Source: Candidatus Bathyarchaeota archaeon
Lineage (GTDB): Archaea; Thermoproteota; Bathyarchaeia; Bathyarchaeales; DTEX01
Direction of reading: 5' to 3'
DNA length: 48,420 nt
Assembly: GCA_018396435.1 (NCBI GenBank)
Contig: JAGTRG010000005.1
Coordinates: 1-48,420, forward strand
A program made the position numbers and the translations under genes. Below, in pieces: positions 3,037 to 48,420 of this stretch (the first letter of the stretch is position 1; the number at the start of each line of letters is the position of its first letter). Under the pieces are notes generated by a model. It was not told the origin of the DNA and searched no databases. It saw only the letters and a list, made by a program, of their open reading frames with translations.

Positions 3037-4116
3037 TCAGCCGTAGGCAGCCTTAAATCTATCAATGAGCTCCCTTGCCTCCCTATATGAAGCGCATGTG
3101 GTTTGGATCGCCACGCCTCTAGGAGATATTTTATTAAGTATGTGCAGCACCCTTTGGGGTTGAACAAATATTTGAAGAAGCTTTCCCTTCCCCTGTATTT
3201 TCCTGTACAATGGCACCCATGTCTCTTCCCCTCCATCAGGATTTCCCGCGCCGGGAATCCATTGTATACCGTCCAATTCAGGGATGTCGAGCAGTTTTTC
3301 CAGATGCTTCAACTCTAATGGTCCGTCTAAATGCCATATCGTTCTTTCAATAGTTTTGCATGCTTCAACTATGTAAGGGTAAACCAGCTGATCGAATACT
3401 CTGGGGGACAAGTAGACGATGGTATCGCATTGAAGCACATAGTGCCTCCTTTCGCTCCAGAGGCCTGCCCATGTGGAGAATCCATTTTCCGGGTTATCTA
3501 TCAATCCGCAGAGCTCTTCGTAAGATTGAAACCAGATCTCCTCAACTCTCCTTAAGGCTTCAACCAAGCTGCTCCAGTTAAGAAAAGCATCTCTTATCAT
3601 ATCCGTTGGAAAGTTTCCCCTAAGCAGCCCGAGAACCGTAATTGGGTCAAGCAGGTCGGTGAGCCCTACAACAGCCTCTTCTCGGCATCTTTCTAAAGCG
3701 GTCCTTGTACATTTAACAAGATATCTCCACCATTCATTTTGCGTGTCAAACTCAACTTTTTTAATTTCCTCCAATTTCATTCTACCTTCAAACCAGGCTG
3801 TATCGATCTCTGGGTTAAATTTCACATCGGCCCCTAAACATGCAGATAGGAATCCTGGTCCCAGATTTATCCAAGCGTTTGGGTAAGCCTCCCCGAGAAA
3901 GCAGACCTCTCTAAACTGCGATAGCAGCGTATCTATCGCCTTATCCACATTGGGGTAGTGCCTGAGGAAAACCCATATGTCTATTGTTTCCCTCCAATGG
4001 TCGTTTTTCGGTGCAAGAATCTGCAGTATGGGTTTATCTAGGCTTCTCTCCCACCAAGCCTTAAAGGCGTCTTTCACTTCGTTCCAATCCTCTTTATTTA
4101 TCATTTGGAACACCAT
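3037..4116 (-). CDS. URO-D/cobalamin-dependent methyltransferase-like TIM-barrel protein
   Basis: LQCD...SP, WHLDG and IQWIPGAG motifs typical of a URO-D-like subfamily. Confidence 0.7.
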   Translation of the reverse strand: MVFQMINKEDWNEVKDAFKAWWERSLDKPILQILAPKNDHWRETIDIWVFLRHYPNVDKAIDTLLSQFREVCFLGEAYPNAWINLGPGFLSACLGADVKFNPEIDTAWFEGRMKLEEIKKVEFDTQNEWWRYLVKCTRTALERCREEAVVGLTDLLDPITVLGLLRGNFPTDMIRDAFLNWSSLVEALRRVEEIWFQSYEELCGLIDNPENGFSTWAGLWSERRHYVLQCDTIVYLSPRVFDQLVYPYIVEACKTIERTIWHLDGPLELKHLEKLLDIPELDGIQWIPGAGNPDGGEETWVPLYRKIQGKGKLLQIFVQPQRVLHILNKISPRGVAIQTTCASYREARELIDRFKAAYG

Positions 4117-6283: not shown

Positions 6284-7201
6284 TTGAAGATTAAGGATCC
6301 CTTTGGAAGGGCTGTTGAAAATATAAGGGTGTCAGTTACCCAAAGATGCAACTTCAGCTGCATCTATTGCCACCGTGAGGGTCAAGCGTCAAATTATGAG
6401 GTTGAGATGTCGGCTGGAGAAATTAAGCGAATAGTTAGGTTAGCTGCCTCCTTAGGTGTTGACAGCGTTAAATTAACGGGCGGTGAACCCCTACTGCGCA
6501 GCGACATAATTGACATAACGCGCGGGATAAGCAGCATAACCGGCATAAAGGATGTTTCCATGACGACGAATGGTTTCCTCCTAGCTCAATACGCTGAGCA
6601 ATTAAAGGAAGCTGGCCTTTCAAGGGTTAACGTCAGCCTAGACACATTGAAACCTGAAAGGTTTAGGTTTATCACCAGTATAAATGCCCATAAAAACGTT
6701 GTTGATGGAATAATTAGAGCTGTTGAGGTGGGCTTAAACCCGGTTAAAGCAAACGTGGTGCTGCTTAAAAACGTAAACGATGATGAAGTAAGCGACCTGA
6801 TAGATTTTGCGGGAAGCCACAGCATAGTGCTTCAAATAATTGAGCTTGAGAAATTCGGCAATGAAACCTTTTATGAGCAGTATCACGTTGATCTAAGCAG
6901 CCTCGAAAAAGAGCTTGAGGAGAAAGCCTCAGAAATAATTGTTAGGCGGATGCAGCATAGGAAAAAATACATTCTTGACAATGGGGCTGAGGTTGAGATC
7001 GTCAAGCCCATGCATAATACTGAATTCTGCCTTCACTGTAATAGAATCCGCCTCACATCCGATGGGCGGCTTAAACCATGCCTATTCAAGAACGATAACC
7101 TAGTAGACCTTCTAGAGCCCATGAGGCGGGGCGAAGACGATGAATATTTGAAGAATCTATTTATTGAGGCTGTGATGAGGAGAAAACCCTACTTTATATA
7201 G
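6284..7201 (+). CDS. moaA: GTP 3',8-cyclase (molybdopterin/tungstopterin biosynthesis radical SAM)
   Basis: RVSVTQRCNFSCIYCH, LTGGEPLLR, C-terminal FCLHCNRIRLTSDG.LKPCL. Confidence 0.95.
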   Translation: MKIKDPFGRAVENIRVSVTQRCNFSCIYCHREGQASNYEVEMSAGEIKRIVRLAASLGVDSVKLTGGEPLLRSDIIDITRGISSITGIKDVSMTTNGFLLAQYAEQLKEAGLSRVNVSLDTLKPERFRFITSINAHKNVVDGIIRAVEVGLNPVKANVVLLKNVNDDEVSDLIDFAGSHSIVLQIIELEKFGNETFYEQYHVDLSSLEKELEEKASEIIVRRMQHRKKYILDNGAEVEIVKPMHNTEFCLHCNRIRLTSDGRLKPCLFKNDNLVDLLEPMRRGEDDEYLKNLFIEAVMRRKPYFI

Positions 7202-7251
7202 GAAAATATCATGATGTAATATTAAATATTTTCAGGCTAGGTGCAGCCATT

Positions 7252-8301
7252 ATGGCTGGAAAAGTTAGGTTCGGCATAATTGGAACAGGCGTTGGAGGCA
7301 ACTTTTGTGCAAATGGAATAGCGCTTATAGCTAACAGCGGCATAGCCGAGCTGACGGCAGTTACAAGCCGGAGGGAAGAAAGAGCAAGAGAATTCGCGTC
7401 AAAATGGGGCGTAAAACAATGGTACACCGATTACAGAAAGATGCTTACGGAGGCGCCAATAGACGCTGTCATAATAAGCACGCCGCACTATCAGCATTAT
7501 CCTATGGCTTTAGACGCAATAGAAGCCAATAAACATGTTCTAATCGACAAGCCTATGGCAATAAACCTAAAAGAAGCGGATGAAATCATTAGGGAAGCTG
7601 AGAGAAAAGGAGTAAAACTTGGAGTGAACCTCCAATCACGATTCGACCCAACCATCAAGAAGGTTAAGGAAGCCGCAGACGCCGGAATATTTGGGCGTCT
7701 AATCCTAGGTGAGGCGGTGATTGAATGGTTCAGAACCAAGGAATACTATGAAAACAGCGCATGGAGAGGACGCTGGTCAACTGAAGGCGGAGGCGTGCTG
7801 ATAAACCAGGCCATCCATACGATAGATCTCCTATTATGGATCATGGGTTCCCCAAAGTGTCTCTGGGCTCAAATGGGCACATTCGCTCACAGAATAGAAG
7901 TTGAGGATCTTGCCGCTGCAATAATTAGGTTTGAGAACGGCGCCATTGGGATAATACAGGGAAGCACAGCGATCTACCCTGGGCTGCCAACTAGGCTTGA
8001 AATACATGGAACAAAGGGAACAGCCATAATTGAAGGCGAGAGTCTGAAAAGATGGTCCATAATTGGCGGGGAGGACATGGTTTCAGAAGCCACAAAGGAG
8101 GGATTGAAATCATGGGCTAAGCCTGAGATTGTTCCGGCAACCAACCATGCAGCCTTAATAAAAGATTTCGCTGAGGCAATCCTTGAAAATAGGAAGCCGG
8201 CTGTCGACGGGGTTGAGGGCCGAAAATCTCTTGAGGTTATAATGGCCATATATAAGTCAGGTAGAACAAACAATGTTGTGACCTTCCCGCTAAGCAATTA
8301 A
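7252..8301 (+). CDS. Gfo/Idh/MocA family oxidoreductase
   Basis: GIIGTG Rossmann motif, DKPMA, GGGVLINQAIHTID. Confidence 0.92.
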   Translation: MAGKVRFGIIGTGVGGNFCANGIALIANSGIAELTAVTSRREERAREFASKWGVKQWYTDYRKMLTEAPIDAVIISTPHYQHYPMALDAIEANKHVLIDKPMAINLKEADEIIREAERKGVKLGVNLQSRFDPTIKKVKEAADAGIFGRLILGEAVIEWFRTKEYYENSAWRGRWSTEGGGVLINQAIHTIDLLLWIMGSPKCLWAQMGTFAHRIEVEDLAAAIIRFENGAIGIIQGSTAIYPGLPTRLEIHGTKGTAIIEGESLKRWSIIGGEDMVSEATKEGLKSWAKPEIVPATNHAALIKDFAEAILENRKPAVDGVEGRKSLEVIMAIYKSGRTNNVVTFPLSN

Positions 8302-9931: not shown

Positions 9932-10390
9932 CTAAAATACGCCGGGTGTCTCCTCCGCAGTCGTTTCTTCAGCTGGTGTTTCAGTTTTCTCCTCTTCATG
10001 CTCGCATACGGCTGCCTCAGCAGACTCGGCAGGTTTAGACCCCTCCAAGACGCTTTTTATGTCGCTTAGCTCCTGCTTCGCCGCTTCTAAACCAAGGTTT
10101 ATTGCCTTCATTTGCTTCTCATATGTTTCATCATCAATCTCGCCTGTAACATGAAGCATTTCAGTATTAGCAAGAAATATCTCTAAGGTTCCTATCTGCT
10201 TCTCTAGATCTTGGGCTCTAGATTCCATTTTGCAGACTATGGTCTCAAGATATTTTTCTACACTGGTTAAAGCCTCTTTTATCTCACCGTTTAGATGCTC
10301 ATATGTTGATTGCGAGATTCTTCCAGAGGAGAATAAATCATCCAGCGCCTGTTTTTTTCTCTTTATGAGATCTAATTCTTTACTCGCCAA
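9932..10390 (-). CDS. CdvA-like coiled-coil protein (start uncertain, see findings)
   Basis: KKQALDDL...GRISQSTY...LEIFLAN.E..HVTGEIDDETY pattern, recalled as typical of Bathyarchaeia CdvA-like proteins; acidic tail. Confidence 0.7.
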   Translation of the reverse strand: MASKELDLIKRKKQALDDLFSSGRISQSTYEHLNGEIKEALTSVEKYLETIVCKMESRAQDLEKQIGTLEIFLANTEMLHVTGEIDDETYEKQMKAINLGLEAAKQELSDIKSVLEGSKPAESAEAAVCEHEEEKTETPAEETTAEETPGVF

Positions 10391-10721: not shown

Positions 10722-11471
10722 GTGAGATGGCTTATGGAGAAGATGGTTCCGGCGGTTAAAGTCGTTGATGTTCACAAAGACTACTACCTTAGGGGCGAGG
10801 TTGTCCACGCCCTACGCGGAATAAACCTTGAGATACCGCGTGGAGAATACTTGTCAGTTATGGGTCCTTCGGGTTCCGGTAAGACGACGCTTTTCAACAT
10901 GGTAGGCGGCATAGACCGCCCAACGAAGGGCGACATATTTATAGATGGAATAGATTTATCGAAGATCCCATCAAAATCCATGGCTTGGCTTAGATGCAGG
11001 AAGATAGGGTATATATTTCAAACTTTCAACCTTATACCTGTCCTAACGGCTAAAGAAAATGTTGCCCTGCCGATGGTTTTCCTCGGTGTGCCTAAGGAGG
11101 AAAGGGAGAAGAAGGCCACCGAACTTCTCAGCACTGTTGGTCTGGGGGATAGGCTTAATCACCGGCCCACTGAGCTCAGTGGCGGTCAGCAGCAGCGTGT
11201 GGCCATAGCCAGAGCCCTAGCCAATGATCCGGCAATCATACTTGCAGATGAGCCGACTGGAAACCTGGATCTAAATACTGGCTTCGCAATAGTGCAGCTA
11301 CTTTATCGCTTGAAGGCTGAACGCGGCACAACAATTATATGCGCCACCCACGACCTGAAAATGATCGACATAAGCGACAGAGTGGTTTTCCTAAGAGACG
11401 GCACCATAGAGAATATTGAGGAGAGACGCGGCCTTGTCCTAACGGCCGAAGAGTTCTTCGCAGGGGAGTAG
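10722..11471 (+). CDS. LolD/MacB-type ABC ATP-binding protein (paralogue 1)
   Basis: GPSGSGKT, FQTFNL, LSGGQQQRV, ILADEPTGNLD, ATHD. Confidence 0.95.
   Translation: MRWLMEKMVPAVKVVDVHKDYYLRGEVVHALRGINLEIPRGEYLSVMGPSGSGKTTLFNMVGGIDRPTKGDIFIDGIDLSKIPSKSMAWLRCRKIGYIFQTFNLIPVLTAKENVALPMVFLGVPKEEREKKATELLSTVGLGDRLNHRPTELSGGQQQRVAIARALANDPAIILADEPTGNLDLNTGFAIVQLLYRLKAERGTTIICATHDLKMIDISDRVVFLRDGTIENIEERRGLVLTAEEFFAGE
10860..11269 (+). repeat. left arm of mosaic inverted repeat (perfect blocks 10860-10924, 10983-11050, 11166-11212, 11235-11269)
   Basis: Base-by-base comparison: each block is the exact reverse complement of 14365-14429, 14239-14306, 14077-14123 and 14020-14054 respectively. Confidence 0.93.
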
Positions 11472-11486
11472 ATGGAGGCGTGAATT

Positions 11487-11807
11487 TTGGCTGAGGAGAT
11501 TGAAAAAATTCAATGCCCTTGTGGAAGAATAATAGATGACCCGGAAGAATATAAGGTGCTTTACTTAAAACATGAGCTAAGAGAGATAGATATTCTCTGC
11601 CCGAACGACTCATGCTACCTTAGAGAGCTCGGATACATAAAATTTGAAATTAAGGATGGAAAAGCCGTATTTAAGGAGGCATCATTTTATCCGCCCTTCG
11701 TAACGTGGAACGCAGGGCGCCTCGGCTTTGAAATAGCTGAGAAGATTCTAAAGTCTCATTTAAAGGAGATTGCTAAAAGAGTCGACTGGGTTAGATTGGG
11801 CAGATAG
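11487..11807 (+). CDS. small Cys-containing (putative Zn-binding) protein of unknown function
   Basis: CPCG...CPNDSC; GGAGG SD; 15 bp downstream of the ABC ATPase. Confidence 0.8.
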   Translation: MAEEIEKIQCPCGRIIDDPEEYKVLYLKHELREIDILCPNDSCYLRELGYIKFEIKDGKAVFKEASFYPPFVTWNAGRLGFEIAEKILKSHLKEIAKRVDWVRLGR

Positions 11808-11819
11808 ATCCCTAGTTTC

Positions 11820-13700
11820 CTATTGAAACATGTTAGAGACATACTCATAGGTCCAACCTATACCTAACTCTTCTAGCTTAGCCCTTGTAGGGACGCCCCT
11901 TTTATCCCAACCCATCATTTCATAATACAGTTCAATTGCATTTCTTAGGTTTTCAGCATCTAATGAAGTTTTTGAGAGAACCCCATCCCGTTTAGGGCTA
12001 AAGAATCTTTCGGGAAGCCAATCATCAACCTTTGTGAAGCCCTCCCTTAAATTAAATATTCTAGCCATCGTTGTGATTCTTTCACCCGTCTTCATCAGAT
12101 CCCACATCGAAGTGTTCCAACCTGTTACGGCTTCAACAATATCGGTTTTCTGATTGAAGTCCCAAGGTAGGAAGACGCATATAAGTAGGCTATTATCTAA
12201 AACGCGCCAATTAACATAATATATGAAAGCTCTAATCTTCCCCGGACTGAGATCCTCCAGCGGAATGGGCTCCAGAATACCTAAACTTGAAAGGGAGCTA
12301 AGCATTGGACCAGCGCTTACCAACCCAGTATCGTGCATGTTATGCGCATGGTCGGCGCCGGTTGGAGAGACCGCGTAACCTAAGCCGAGGGCTCTTTTAA
12401 GCCTCGGCTCATGCATCGGTATTTCTAAACCCTTCACATGCATCGCGAATTTCTCAGATCCCCCACCTATGATTTCAGAGGCCCTCCTCACGCCCTCAGC
12501 CAAAATTTTCCCTACGCCTTTACGGTAGGCTATTTTCTCAACCACTTTAACCATAGCTTCAGCATTTCCAAACCAGAGATCTAACCCATCAGCGTCCTTC
12601 CTAGTTAATATGTTATTTTCGTAACATTCCATGGCAAACGCTATTGCCACACCAGTTGATATGGCATCTAAAGAGTACCTGTTACATAACTCGTTTGCCT
12701 TCGTCACCGCCTGAAGATCGTCCACTCCACAGTTTGAGCCGAGGGCTGCTAAAGCCTCATACTCTGGTCCACCGTAAGACGGATCAACATTCCAAGGCTC
12801 ACCAATCTTAACAATTTTCTTGCATCTAACTGAACAAGCGTAGCAGCCTTCCATACCTATGCTTATTGTTCTTTTTATTGTTCTCGCATCTAGATTCTCA
12901 TATCCTGCGAATAATCCATCCCTGAAATTTCTAACTGGTAGATTTCCAGATGCAACACCAGCGTCCATCCCAGCCCCGGTGCCATAATTATGAAAATTGT
13001 ATGCGAGTTTATCCATATTCTGGTTCAGCCATCTGGTTAGATCTCTCAGTCTCTCAGGATTATGAACCTCAACCCTGCCCCTCCCCCTAACAGCTACCGC
13101 CTTAAGATTCTTTGATCCCATAACAGCGCCCATACCGGTTCTTCCAGCCGCATCACGTAGATCAACGATTACGCATGCAAATCGAACAAGGTTCTCTCCC
13201 CCAGGCCCTATTGAAGCAATGCGAACAAGCTTATCGCCTAATTCCTCACGTATTATACTCTGGGTTTCACCAGTCTCCTTACCCCACAAATGCTCAGCGT
13301 CCTTAATTTCAGCTTCACCATCGTGAATCCAAAGGTACACTGGTTCACTGGACTTACCCTCAATTATTACGGCGTCGAGCCCAGCTCGCTTAAGCTCAGC
13401 TCCCCATGATCCACCGACCTCAGACTCGCCGAAACCGCCTGTTAACGGAGACTTTGCGCCTATGCTATTCCTTCCACATCCAGGTATCGGCGCGCCAGTT
13501 AGCGGTCCAGCCGCAAATATCAGCTTGTTTTCAGGTCCAAGCGGGTCTATGCCGGGTTTAACTTCTCTCAGCAGATAGTAGGCAACAAAGCCTTCCCCGC
13601 CTAAATACATACGATAGAACTTTTCATCCGGCTTCTCAATTGTTATGCGTTCATCTGAAAGATTAACCCTTAATACCCTGCCATTATAGCCGAAGGGCAT
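11820..13700 (-). CDS. aor: tungsten aldehyde:ferredoxin oxidoreductase family protein
   Basis: KSPLTG, AAGRTGMGAVMGSKNLKA, CYAC...C, GGPEYE, HVKGLE. Confidence 0.93.
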   Translation of the reverse strand: MPFGYNGRVLRVNLSDERITIEKPDEKFYRMYLGGEGFVAYYLLREVKPGIDPLGPENKLIFAAGPLTGAPIPGCGRNSIGAKSPLTGGFGESEVGGSWGAELKRAGLDAVIIEGKSSEPVYLWIHDGEAEIKDAEHLWGKETGETQSIIREELGDKLVRIASIGPGGENLVRFACVIVDLRDAAGRTGMGAVMGSKNLKAVAVRGRGRVEVHNPERLRDLTRWLNQNMDKLAYNFHNYGTGAGMDAGVASGNLPVRNFRDGLFAGYENLDARTIKRTISIGMEGCYACSVRCKKIVKIGEPWNVDPSYGGPEYEALAALGSNCGVDDLQAVTKANELCNRYSLDAISTGVAIAFAMECYENNILTRKDADGLDLWFGNAEAMVKVVEKIAYRKGVGKILAEGVRRASEIIGGGSEKFAMHVKGLEIPMHEPRLKRALGLGYAVSPTGADHAHNMHDTGLVSAGPMLSSLSSLGILEPIPLEDLSPGKIRAFIYYVNWRVLDNSLLICVFLPWDFNQKTDIVEAVTGWNTSMWDLMKTGERITTMARIFNLREGFTKVDDWLPERFFSPKRDGVLSKTSLDAENLRNAIELYYEMMGWDKRGVPTRAKLEELGIGWTYEYVSNMFQ

Positions 13701-13832
13701 TTTTCATACCTCAGCCCAATTTTCCCTCTATTCCTTCCTCTACTATTAAAATTTAAAATCTCATTTTGTAAGCTAAATTGATGAATGAAAGCGCCGTTGA
13801 ATTTTCGATTTGTTTTAAATGCCTGTTAATAT

Positions 13833-14552
13833 CTATTCTGAAACTCTCACGTATACTTCCGCTCTAGTCTCGTATCGGTCTACTCGTCCATCACGTAGGT
13901 AAATTATCCTATCACTGACATCGATCATTTTCAGGTCATGAGTGGCTGAAATAACCGTTACCCCTTTTTCCTTGTTCATTTCCCTAAGAAGAGTTATTAT
14001 CTCAAGCCCCGTATGTAAGTCCAGGTTTCCAGTCGGCTCATCTGCAAGTATGATAACCGGATTGTTTGCTAGGGCCCTGGCTATGGCCACACGCTGCTGC
14101 TGACCGCCACTGAGCTCAGTGGGTTTGTGATTAAGCCTATCTCCCAAACCAACCATCTCAAGAATTTCCCTACCCCTTCTGAATCTTTCCTCACGCTCCA
14201 CACCAGCAAAGATCATGGGTAGCATGACGTTCTCTATGGCCGTTAGGACAGGTATAAGGTTGAAAGTTTGAAATATATACCCTATCTTCCTGCATCTAAG
14301 CCAAGCAAGCTCATAGGCGTCCAACTTGGCAATGTCAACACCATCGATGTATACTCTTCCCCGGGTTGGGCGGTCTATGCCGCCTACCATGTTGAAAAGC
14401 GTCGTCTTACCGGAACCCGAAGGACCCATGATTGATATATACTCGCCACGTTTAATTCTTAGGTCAACACCATCTAAAGCCTTAACCGTTATGGGGCCCA
14501 TCTGATAATATTTGGCTAAATCCTCCGTTTCAACGACATATTCAAAGCTTAT
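13833..14552 (-). CDS. LolD/MacB-type ABC ATP-binding protein (paralogue 2); probable non-canonical start near 14552
   Basis: All ABC motifs present. The frame stays open upstream of the called ATG (14501) as ISFEYVVETEDLAKYYQ, the expected first strand of the fold. Confidence 0.9.
   Translation of the reverse strand: MSFEYVVETEDLAKYYQMGPITVKALDGVDLRIKRGEYISIMGPSGSGKTTLFNMVGGIDRPTRGRVYIDGVDIAKLDAYELAWLRCRKIGYIFQTFNLIPVLTAIENVMLPMIFAGVEREERFRRGREILEMVGLGDRLNHKPTELSGGQQQRVAIARALANNPVIILADEPTGNLDLHTGLEIITLLREMNKEKGVTVISATHDLKMIDVSDRIIYLRDGRVDRYETRAEVYVRVSE
14020..14429 (-). repeat. right arm of mosaic inverted repeat shared with ABC paralogue 1
   Basis: Four perfect blocks of 35, 47, 68 and 65 bp. 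Confidence 0.93.
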
Positions 14553-14701
14553 ATGTCATTCCTCCCAGTCACTAAATCTTGACATTAATATAAAACAGCT
14601 CCCTCTTATAAAATTAACTTTATTTACGCAGTTGCTGAGTCGCATAAGAAAAATCTTTTAAAAGGCTATCCATACATTGGAATGGATGAGAGGTCTCCCC
14701 T

Positions 14702-40424: not shown

Positions 40425-40955
40425 TTGAGCGATGGAGGTCTTATTTGGATTTATAGGAACTATGAAGATTGCAGCGGATGCAGAAGATGCGAAATTGCCT
40501 GCTCATTGAAGCATGAAGGCAAGATATGGCCGGAAGCCTCAAGGGTCAGGGTGTTTATGCTTGTGCCGGGCATTGAGGTTCCGCATCTATGTGCTCAATG
40601 CCATGATTATCCATGCGTTGAAGCATGCCCAGTTGGTGCTCTTTCAACAAGCAAGGAAACCGGCGCTGTTCTGGTTGACAAGGATAAATGCATAGCGTGC
40701 GGCAAATGCATAGATGCTTGTCCAGGCAAGGTTCCATTTATACACCCGTCTGATAATTATGCCGTTATATGCGATTTATGCGGCGGAGAACCGGAGTGCG
40801 TTAAGGCCTGCGGTAAGGGCGGATGGAACGCGCTGCAGCTCGTCCGAAGATGGGGCGGCGAACACGATATGAAATTATATGCAAAAACCCCTGAAAAGAT
40901 AACTAGGGATCTTGTCGCAAAACTGTACGGTGAAGAAATGGCGGAGAGTGTTTAA
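40425..40955 (+). CDS. 4x[4Fe-4S] polyferredoxin, WOR5 small-subunit-like
   Basis: CSGCRRCEIACS, IWPEASR, CAQC..YPC..ACP, CIACGKCIDACP, CDLCGG.P.C. Confidence 0.88.
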   Translation: MSDGGLIWIYRNYEDCSGCRRCEIACSLKHEGKIWPEASRVRVFMLVPGIEVPHLCAQCHDYPCVEACPVGALSTSKETGAVLVDKDKCIACGKCIDACPGKVPFIHPSDNYAVICDLCGGEPECVKACGKGGWNALQLVRRWGGEHDMKLYAKTPEKITRDLVAKLYGEEMAESV

Positions 40956-40956
40956 A

Positions 40957-42834
40957 ATGAGGGGTTACGCTGGGAAATTTCTTGAGGTGGACTTATCCTC
41001 TGGAAACATTAAGGAGATTAAGATTGGTGAGGATATTTTAAGGCAGTATATTGGCGGACGAGGGTTAGCTGTAAAAATACTTTGGGATCGCTTAGGAAGA
41101 AGATGGGAAGATGTAGATCCTCTAGGTCCAGAAAACATGCTGCTACTATTGACCGGGCCATTAACCGGGTTTATGCCAGGCGGCAGAATATGCGTTTCAG
41201 GCAAGTCCCCACAAAGCAACGGCATAGTTGGCTCAACAGTTGGCGGCGAGTTTTCAATAGAGCTTAAATGCGCAGGGTATGATGGGTTAATATTCACCGG
41301 CACCTCAGAGAAGCCGGTTTACCTATCCATTAAGGACTCAGATATTGATTTGAAAGACGCTGGTCACTTGTGGGGGAAAAACGCTAGGGAAACCGTGTTA
41401 ACATTGACCAGGGAATGGTGGAAAGATTATGGGAGCCTCCATGCTGGGCGAGGCCTATTGAAGGAGCCTGCGATGCTGTATATTGGGCCTGCTGGGGAAA
41501 AACTGTGCCGAGTAGCGGCTGTAACACATAAGTGGGCGCATGCAGCCGGGTATGGTGGATATGGTGCAGTTATGGGGTCGAAATGGTTAAAGGCGATTAT
41601 GGTTAAGGGAACCGGCCCGCTTCCAGAAGTTCATGACATGGAGAAGACGGTTGAGATTGCCGATAAAATTGTGGAGGCTGCTCTCAGGATGGATCTGTTT
41701 AGGCGTTGGGGCACGGCTTCCGCCGGATACACCACTGGCGCCGAATCGAGCTCCGAGCCTGTTATGAATTGGCAAGAGGAGTGGCACGACGAGGAAAGCT
41801 TCGGCGTTAATGAGTTCGAAAGGTTCTGGGTTAAAAGGTTCTGGGGAGACTACGGTTGCCCCATAACATGCCTGAAAATAGCAGTGATCAAATCAGGACC
41901 CCTCAAGGGTGCGGTGACAGATAATCCGGATTATGAGAACCAGGCGTATTTAGGAACAAACCTGGGGATCTTTAAACCTGAGGGGAACATCTATTTAACG
42001 GCTTTAGCGGATGACTTAGGCTTCTGCGGGATTCAGGTTGGTAATCTGCTCGGCTTCGCTGCTGAACTTTATCAGAGGGGCATATTGACTAGGGAGGATT
42101 TAGGGGGCATAGATCTGAAATGGGGAGATGCTGGAGCATTCGCGGCCTTAATGAAATTGATTGTTGAGCGGAAGGGGATAGGGGACATGCTGGCTGAGGG
42201 AACCTACAGGGCGGCGCTAAAAATAAGTGAGATAAAAGGCGTTGATGCGCTGCAATACGCTGTTGTCTCTAAGGGTATAGGTATAGGTGCGCATGGAATA
42301 AGAAGCGAGAAGGATTACCCGCATTATGTATCATATGCCTGCTCAGTGCAAGGCGGTGACCACACATCGGTTGCTTATGTGCCAATCGATCATGGAGGCA
42401 GCGAGTTAGCCGCAATGCTCTACGATTCAGGGGTATTCTGCATGTTCACGTTCTTTAGCCCCGAAACCCAGCGTCTCTTATGGAGTTTCCTAGAATCTGT
42501 CACAGGCTGGAAGATCACGCCTGAAGAATGGTATAATGCGACGGCACGCAGAATACTGCACATTCAAAGGGCGGCTTTACTCCTAGGCGGACCGGATCTC
42601 AGATGGAACCCGAAAATCCATGATGATGTGCCGAAACGGTGGTATGAGCCATTAGGTAAGGGTCCATTTAGCGGTAAAGCTGTCGATAGGGATAGGATGC
42701 GTGAGTCAATAAGTGAGTATTATAGGGCTGCGGGTTGGGATGAAAACGGCATCCCGACCTCGGAGGAGCTTAGGCGTCTAGGGCTAGATGATGTGGATGA
42801 AAGGCTGGAGCATATTAGGCAATCTTTGAAGTGA
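40957..42834 (+). CDS. tungsten oxidoreductase of the AOR family, WOR5-like large subunit
   Basis: KSPQSNGIVGS, HAAGYGGYGAVMGSK, SSEP..NWQEE, YGCP..C, AHGIRS, SVQGGDHTS, LLLGGPD; start ATG 40957. Confidence 0.88.
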   Translation: MRGYAGKFLEVDLSSGNIKEIKIGEDILRQYIGGRGLAVKILWDRLGRRWEDVDPLGPENMLLLLTGPLTGFMPGGRICVSGKSPQSNGIVGSTVGGEFSIELKCAGYDGLIFTGTSEKPVYLSIKDSDIDLKDAGHLWGKNARETVLTLTREWWKDYGSLHAGRGLLKEPAMLYIGPAGEKLCRVAAVTHKWAHAAGYGGYGAVMGSKWLKAIMVKGTGPLPEVHDMEKTVEIADKIVEAALRMDLFRRWGTASAGYTTGAESSSEPVMNWQEEWHDEESFGVNEFERFWVKRFWGDYGCPITCLKIAVIKSGPLKGAVTDNPDYENQAYLGTNLGIFKPEGNIYLTALADDLGFCGIQVGNLLGFAAELYQRGILTREDLGGIDLKWGDAGAFAALMKLIVERKGIGDMLAEGTYRAALKISEIKGVDALQYAVVSKGIGIGAHGIRSEKDYPHYVSYACSVQGGDHTSVAYVPIDHGGSELAAMLYDSGVFCMFTFFSPETQRLLWSFLESVTGWKITPEEWYNATARRILHIQRAALLLGGPDLRWNPKIHDDVPKRWYEPLGKGPFSGKAVDRDRMRESISEYYRAAGWDENGIPTSEELRRLGLDDVDERLEHIRQSLK

Positions 42835-47899: not shown

Positions 47900-48420
<521 letters not shown>

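Follow-up and report, generated by a model that had tools for sequence, protein, structure and literature searches.

How can two genes that have diverged to 68.6% nucleotide identity (over 669 aligned nucleotides [nt]) still carry stretches of DNA that match letter for letter? The question is raised by a 48,420-nt stretch of the genome of Candidatus Bathyarchaeota archaeon (GenBank assembly GCA_018396435.1, contig JAGTRG010000005.1, positions 1 to 48,420; hereafter, the window). In it, two paralogous genes for ATP-binding cassette (ABC) ATPases, called A and B below, lie in convergent orientation 2.4 kb apart, with a gene for a Cys-rich protein and aor, the gene for an aldehyde:ferredoxin oxidoreductase (AOR), between them. 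Our answer is that A and B are very probably ancient paralogues under recurrent interlocus (ectopic) gene conversion. An earlier interpretation made from the DNA letters alone (hereafter, the original prediction) had read the locus as the site of ongoing recombination between the two copies and also as an invertible switch. The first part is supported by the silent sites of the two genes, by mosaic proteins in relatives, and by two homogenized gene pairs; the second part is possible as far as inversion itself is concerned and unlikely for a regulated switch.

Exact DNA blocks shared by two diverged ATPase genes

Gene A lies at 10734–11471 on the plus strand, and the canonical open reading frame (ORF) of gene B at 13833–14501 on the minus strand. 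Four blocks of A recur in B as exact reverse complements: block 1 (65 nt; MGPSGSGKTTLFNMVGGIDRP) at 10860–10924 (+) and 14365–14429 (−), block 2 (68 nt; AWLRCRKIGYIFQTFNLIPVLT) at 10983–11050 (+) and 14239–14306 (−), block 3 (47 nt; PTELSGGQQQRVAIA) at 11166–11212 (+) and 14077–14123 (−), and block 4 (35 nt; IILADEPTGNL) at 11235–11269 (+) and 14020–14054 (−). Two shorter exact runs come in addition to these four, which were the ones listed in the original prediction: 15 nt before block 3 (11148–11162 in A, +; 14127–14141 in B, −) and 17 nt encoding DLKMI (11352–11368 in A, +; 13921–13937 in B, −). Blocks 1 to 4 encode the Walker A motif, the Q-loop region, the ABC signature, and the Walker B motif, respectively, and the 17-nt run lies at the H-loop region; all of these motifs are visible in the alignment of A with B. 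The four blocks are the only exact repeats of at least 30 nt in the whole window, and the 68-nt block, which occurs exactly twice, found a match in 0 of 100 shuffles. The arms of the inverted repeats are separated by 2726 to 3392 nt. Several block ends sit at synonymous differences in the alignment and not at residue differences, and the boundaries are therefore a DNA-level feature.

The number of identical codons to be expected was computed from the codon usage of 29 other genes of the window. All 69 block codons are identical between A and B, compared with 25.5 expected (log10 P = −32.5), whereas outside the blocks 32 of 77 codons are identical and 28.4 are expected, which is the random level. 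When only degenerate codons specifying the same residue are considered, the two genes use the same codon at 66 of 66 positions in the blocks versus 30 of 76 outside. Runs of identical silent codons reach 22, 20, 20, and 12, and the longest run in permuted data attained 22 in 392 of 100,000 permutations. By the NG86 method, synonymous divergence (dS) comes to 0 within the blocks and is saturated, hence undefined, elsewhere in the two genes, where nonsynonymous divergence (dN) is 0.47; it follows that the patches are recent and the copies themselves old. Tracts identical at silent sites, set in flanks diverged at silent sites, are the pattern by which interlocus conversion is recognized, and this is the pattern found here.

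The original prediction had described four reverse-complement blocks of 65, 68, 47, and 35 nt, comprising about 70 codons free of synonymous differences, and protein segments that differ between the blocks (DLSKIPSKSM in one copy and DIAKLDAYEL in the other; FLGVPKEEREKKAT and FAGVEREERFRRGR). The blocks proved exact at all eight positions, and the alignment bears out the protein differences. Its argument that selection at the protein level cannot explain the silent identity agrees with the codon counts in and outside the blocks, as does the dS comparison.

Could the same pattern have arisen without recombination, either through a recent duplication followed by fast divergence between the motifs or through codon bias or nucleotide-level selection on the motif codons? 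As such a scenario would have it, the blocks coincide with the motifs that are most conserved in proteins of this family, and L043 (Oleiharenicola sp.), an unrelated G+C-rich locus among our controls, likewise contains two ATPase paralogues with exact patches in common (7435–7534 and 14532–14631), of 30 and 36 nt, where the signature and Walker B are encoded. However, codon usage accounts for far fewer than the 69 identical block codons, and the codon match outside the blocks is at the level of chance, so that the duplication must be old; A and B, moreover, each have their own orthologues across Bathyarchaeia. The controls argue in the same direction: among 79 loci with other ATPases of the same motifs (at most 56% identical to A and mostly bacterial, among the matches listed), exact matches to A or B reach 20 nt at most. 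We give an origin without recombination almost no credence.

Mosaic proteins and homogenized pairs in relatives

If A and B exchange sequence, relatives of this archaeon may carry alleles assembled from both. We aligned 249 database proteins with A and B, scored them at the 88 columns at which the two differ, and described each by a code of five segments bounded by the blocks (a, A-type; b, B-type). There was no clear switch in 219 of the proteins, and the other 30 are clean A/B mosaics with their switch points at the blocks. Conversion would be expected to leave an internal foreign patch, and 11 mosaics have one (abaaa and babbb, 3 each; aabaa, bbabb, aaaba, abbaa, and ababb, 1 each). Seven of these 11 are encoded on contigs of at least 10 kb, up to 149 kb, and because they are found on such long contigs, internal segment swaps are evidently tolerated.

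Pairs of A and B were compared in six relatives, in which the two presumably share a contig, and in the window, giving seven pairs in all. The members of the pair P0003/P0125 are identical over 122 residues, and both combine an A-type segment 2 with a B-type segment 3; those of P0016/P0181 are identical over 145 residues, and both combine a B-type segment 2 with an A-type segment 3. Overall identity within these two pairs is 79% and 82%, respectively, compared with 63–69% in the other five. Because both copies of each pair carry the same segment types, the two cases point to non-reciprocal transfer, in both directions, and a reciprocal swap was seen in 0 of the 7 same-contig pairs. The original prediction had also proposed to ask whether paralogues group by genome within the blocks and by orthology outside them; at the protein level, the variable residues across the seven pairs do so, with 18 grouping by genome and 10 by orthology in the blocks versus 90 and 692, respectively, outside. 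The sequence FNM[V/I]GG is alike in both copies in all seven pairs. The silent-site pattern, the mosaic proteins, and the non-reciprocal homogenization in two genomes are the demonstrated part of the gene conversion reading.

The same comparison bears on the possibility of an assembly or polishing artefact, in which the blocks would differ in the organism and the reads of one copy would have overwritten the other. In favor of this possibility, the close relatives are all proteins of metagenome-assembled genomes (MAGs) or metagenomes, so that the genome of the window looks metagenome-derived as well. Against it, reads are anchored by strongly diverged sequence that sets in abruptly at the block ends, and the blocks, at 35–68 nt, are shorter than ordinary reads. 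Independent assemblies, furthermore, give the same block peptides in both copies (block 1 in 6 of the 7 pairs and block 2 in 5) and contain mosaics on contigs of up to 149 kb; the phenomenon is thus independent of this one assembly, and an artefact is hardly credible.

Single-switch chimeras and the question of inversion

The inverted repeats bound a segment that carries the Cys-rich protein gene and aor. A crossover in one of the blocks would invert 10925–14364, or a smaller nested segment, and produce chimeric ATPases that join the N-terminal part of A to the C-terminal part of B and vice versa. Both chimeric genes would keep their own promoters; aor would still follow the B-type 3′ part and the Cys-rich protein gene the A-type 3′ part.

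Proteins with a single switch account for 19 of the 249 (abbbb, 5; baaaa, 2; aabbb, 4; aaabb, 5; bbbaa, 3). All 19 lie on contigs shorter than 10 kb (median 1.7 kb, maximum 8.9 kb), whereas 82 of the 219 unswitched proteins are on contigs of at least 10 kb (Fisher p = 2.7e-4); conversely, single-switch proteins number 0 among the 89 on contigs of that length. Because of this absence from long contigs, the chimeras may be either minority variants or assembly joins across the repeats, and the data fit both equally.

If they are minority variants, some crossovers between the blocks would occasionally flip the segment in an unprogrammed manner, in addition to conversion. The geometry of the inverted repeats permits such events, and the chimeras are of exactly the kinds predicted, and at block 1 as well as at blocks 3/4 both reciprocal classes of switch occur. 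Conversion cannot make single-switch chimeras, because their foreign part extends to the stop codon and homology goes no further. Individual cases are suggestive as well: P0205 and P0206 (both bbbaa) differ slightly from each other and represent 3 contigs in all, and P0130 and P0201 are each about 1–3 residues away from the A and B parts of this window. There is also a precedent in the tuf genes, for which up to 50% of recombination events are reported to lead to inversion (Hughes 2000, as cited in PMC6735719). Yet assembler joins across repeats of 35–68 nt or longer would likewise yield chimeras restricted to short contigs, the four aabbb proteins have no bbaaa partner among the 249, P0138 lacks its N-terminus and may carry an internal patch instead, and none of the same-contig pairs is reciprocal. 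We regard occasional inversion as possible but doubtful; inversion by crossover is at most a rare by-product.

The original prediction went further and envisaged an invertible AOR cassette acting as a possible shuffling switch. Such a functional, reversible inversion would bring promoters and ATPase N-termini into new combinations with the halves that carry aor or the Cys-rich protein gene and would vary the ATPases. Chimeras of the kinds that it foresaw do exist in public data, minority orientations typically assemble as short contigs, as the 19 chimeras do, and a flip would put aor behind the A promoter and the Cys-rich protein gene behind the B promoter. However, the inverted state is never the assembled majority (of the 89 proteins on contigs of at least 10 kb, 0 are single-switch), and the forms fixed on long contigs are internal patches, which are not an inversion product. 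No integrase, invertase, or transposase family was matched among the 47 window ORFs scanned with Pfam, with ORFs that have no family remaining as candidates, and three ORFs that were scanned again at E 0.01 gave no match. No phenotype speaks for such a device. We consider a regulated switch unlikely, and the reversible re-pairing of promoters and gene halves as a functional device strikes us as very improbable.

A related view would see the convergent pair as a recombinase-free module-shuffling locus that maintains combinatorial ATPase alleles and two operon wirings in populations, with selective value. The four motif blocks would then act as joints at which general recombination swaps the ATPase segments lying between them, namely the strands after Walker A, the helical subdomain, and the C-terminal part, and the same recombination would flip the aor/Cys-rich-gene segment between two promoters. 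The helical subdomain of ABC proteins contacts the membrane partner. We consider this proposal a long shot.

A model of recurrent conversion

Gene conversion between A and B, the reading that we prefer, would be carried out by the general homologous-recombination machinery of the cell. Strand invasion would take place, and tracts would end, where purifying selection holds the two copies closest to each other, at the codons of Walker A, the Q-loop, the signature, and Walker B. Each event would reset these motif stretches to identity, silent sites included, and they would therefore stay good substrates for recombination. Tracts that also replaced the diverged segments between the blocks would give rise to the mosaic alleles of the relatives, and in this genome only the blocks are homogenized at present. 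Selection presumably keeps the inter-block segments distinct in most genomes. The enzymology would be RadA-type recombination, perhaps with short-patch processing as in Sulfolobus, which belongs to the same wide archaeal group as Bathyarchaeia.

Several points weigh against this model or narrow it. The 19 single-switch chimeras, for the reason given above, are beyond what conversion can make. The identity of the blocks is that of the assembled sequence. The blocks are the most conserved motifs, so that their residues carry little information in themselves, even though this coincidence fits the model. The six same-contig pairings in relatives were deduced from the equal size of the longest contigs of both members, and the test of grouping by genome rests on proteins, whereas its classical form uses the DNA of the blocks. 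Finally, in the most distant pairs, P0104/P0180 and P0079/P0187, blocks 2 to 4 differ by orthology; conversion is therefore not uniform, and homogenization depends on the lineage.

The two ATPases and their genomic surroundings

Each of the two proteins consists of one single ABC_tran domain (Pfam E-values 2.9e-36 for A and 2.6e-34 for B). The longest ORF of A spans 10722–11471 and starts at GTG 10722, but the ATG at 10734, which gives a protein of 245 aa, is the likely start, because orthologues begin with MEK. The best NCBIfam matches of A and B are LolD (225 bits), FtsE, DarD, DevA, and MacB, and both proteins stay below every equivalog cut-off of that database (LolD, 225 versus 307.75; FtsE, 212–214 versus 264.85; MacB, 209–222 versus 966). 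Neither an FtsX nor a MacB_PCD permease was found among the 47 window ORFs scanned with Pfam, and none lies beside A or B. The two proteins thus resemble the MacB/LolD/FtsE-type ATPases in having all of the motifs and differ from them in falling under the equivalog cut-offs and in lacking an operon permease. In the archaeal relatives L002 and L035, by comparison, the ATPase shares an operon with a large Ig-like/CARDB protein and a MacB_PCD+FtsX permease.

The best 120 database matches are 78–97% identical to A and 80–96% identical to B, respectively, and their named sources are Bathyarchaeota/Bathyarchaeia and “Nitrososphaerota” MAGs, with Thermofilaceae in addition for B. Because each has its own close matches across Bathyarchaeia, A and B form two separately conserved orthologue groups, and they may be described as putative orphan ATPases of the MacB/LolD type that are conserved in Bathyarchaeia. 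At least six relatives seem to have retained both, as a pair, on a single contig.

The 5′ end of B is unusual. The canonical ORF encodes 222 aa, and a called length of 221–223 aa is given for 46 of the 120 B relatives listed. Upstream of the called ATG (14501), however, the DNA continues in frame to 14552 and encodes ISFEYVVETEDLAKYYQ, which corresponds to the N-terminal strand of B and an aromatic “KYY” stretch. No ATG, GTG, or TTG that could start this peptide is present in the region 14502–14570 (−), and a TGA stands two codons further up. At the position where 13 orthologues have Met (MSFEYVVE), B has the codon ATA (14552–14550), located 6 nt after GGGAGG; orthologues that start with MSFEYVVE at that codon are 239 aa long. 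This arrangement points either to a start at a near-cognate AUA codon or to an ATPase that is truncated and lacks the adenine-stacking residue. A frameshift was considered and rejected, given that orthologues show the upstream peptide in frame and that 13 of them have Met at the ATA codon.

Between the two ATPase genes, and within the segment that a crossover would invert, lie the genes for the Cys-rich protein (11487–11807, +; 106 aa) and for AOR (aor; 11820–13700, −; 626 aa). The former starts 15 nt downstream of A and contains the pattern CPCG...CPNDSC; it matched no Pfam or NCBIfam family, and the Atlas clusters closest to it (0.95 and 0.94) consist of Bathyarchaeota hypothetical proteins of 115–117 aa. 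The latter follows B on the same strand at a distance of 132 nt and matches the Pfam families AFOR_N (3.2e-83) and AFOR_C (1.1e-123). A second AOR paralogue (640 aa) is encoded at 40425–42834 (+), preceded by a 4Fe-4S ferredoxin-like gene, and shares no exact repeat of at least 30 nt with the aor between the ATPases.

Immediately upstream of A, and separated from it by an A+T-rich spacer of 330 nt, is a gene for a 152-aa coiled-coil protein (9932–10390, −) with weak similarity to CdvA (Pfam, 1.7e-13; far under the NCBIfam cut-off). Rfam and tRNA scans revealed no RNA gene in or next to the ATPase locus, and a scan for promoters and terminators of the bacterial type gave nothing usable, the models being bacterial and the host archaeal. 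At the margins of the window are the 5′ end of a 23S rRNA gene (1–456, −) and the 3′ part of a 16S rRNA gene (47900–48420, −), on the same strand and 47.4 kb apart; protein genes occupy the interval, and the rRNA genes of this genome are therefore unlinked.

Known systems and precedents

The closest analogue of the A/B pair appears to be tufA/tufB of Salmonella enterica. These inversely oriented paralogues are homogenized by non-reciprocal homologous recombination, and a crossover between the two genes flips the DNA that separates them and yields hybrid operons, the inversion having a fitness cost (PMC5485169, PMC6735719). Like A and B, the tuf genes are two inverted paralogues on one chromosome that evolve in concert by conversion. 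The tuf genes, as described there, are nearly identical over 1185 nt (12 differences) and 762 kb apart, whereas A and B are 69% identical, 2.4 kb apart, and homogenized only in patches of 15–68 nt at motif codons; the pair is also archaeal and known from sequence alone.

Other systems share single features with the locus. Switches of the Hin/Gin/Rci type and shufflons use a dedicated recombinase and short specific sites. They are similar to the A/B locus in that inverted repeats flank a segment whose flip would re-pair gene halves and promoters, and they differ in that the repeats here are coding motifs of paralogues and that no recombinase family was matched in the 47 window ORFs. Among archaea, gene conversion between paralogues of the chaperonin (thermosome) subunits was reportedly described by Archibald and Roger in 2002. 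These, too, are said to be archaeal ATPase paralogues with a history blurred by conversion; they belong to another protein family and lack the geometry of an inverted pair. For Sulfolobus acidocaldarius, short-patch conversion with multiple discontinuous tracts is described for transformation with marked DNA (PMC4471258). Those short discontinuous tracts resemble the several short patches of A and B, with the difference that the latter concern chromosomal paralogues.

Exact patches between paralogues are not unique to the A/B locus. Besides the patches of L043 mentioned above, the locus L002 (Methanosarcinales) has a duplicated unit of an ATPase and a CARDB protein (3126–3977 and 7090–7967) with exact patches of 30–47 nt. 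A single narrow query of the literature on Bathyarchaeota and gene conversion, judged by title and abstract, found no earlier report of the A/B locus.

Implications

Gene conversion is a known process, and the A/B pair is a further case of it, in an uncultured archaeal group. Unless each segment is treated separately, phylogenies and orthology assignments of both of these widespread Bathyarchaeia ATPases will go astray. The A/B locus is also a place where assemblies of short reads will tend to break off or to be joined wrongly, and gene calls of chimeric ATPases on short contigs call for caution. The locus may be a tractable one for learning how often ectopic recombination in archaea resolves as a crossover, and if inversion were real and regulated, it would amount to a recombinase-free switch in an uncultured archaeal group. 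What the pair offers is a clean archaeal case of patchy concerted evolution between old paralogues, with mosaic alleles visible in public data. It also indicates which parts of the nucleotide-binding domain exchange in nature: on long contigs, internal segments are swapped, and N- and C-terminal parts of differing origin are never combined.

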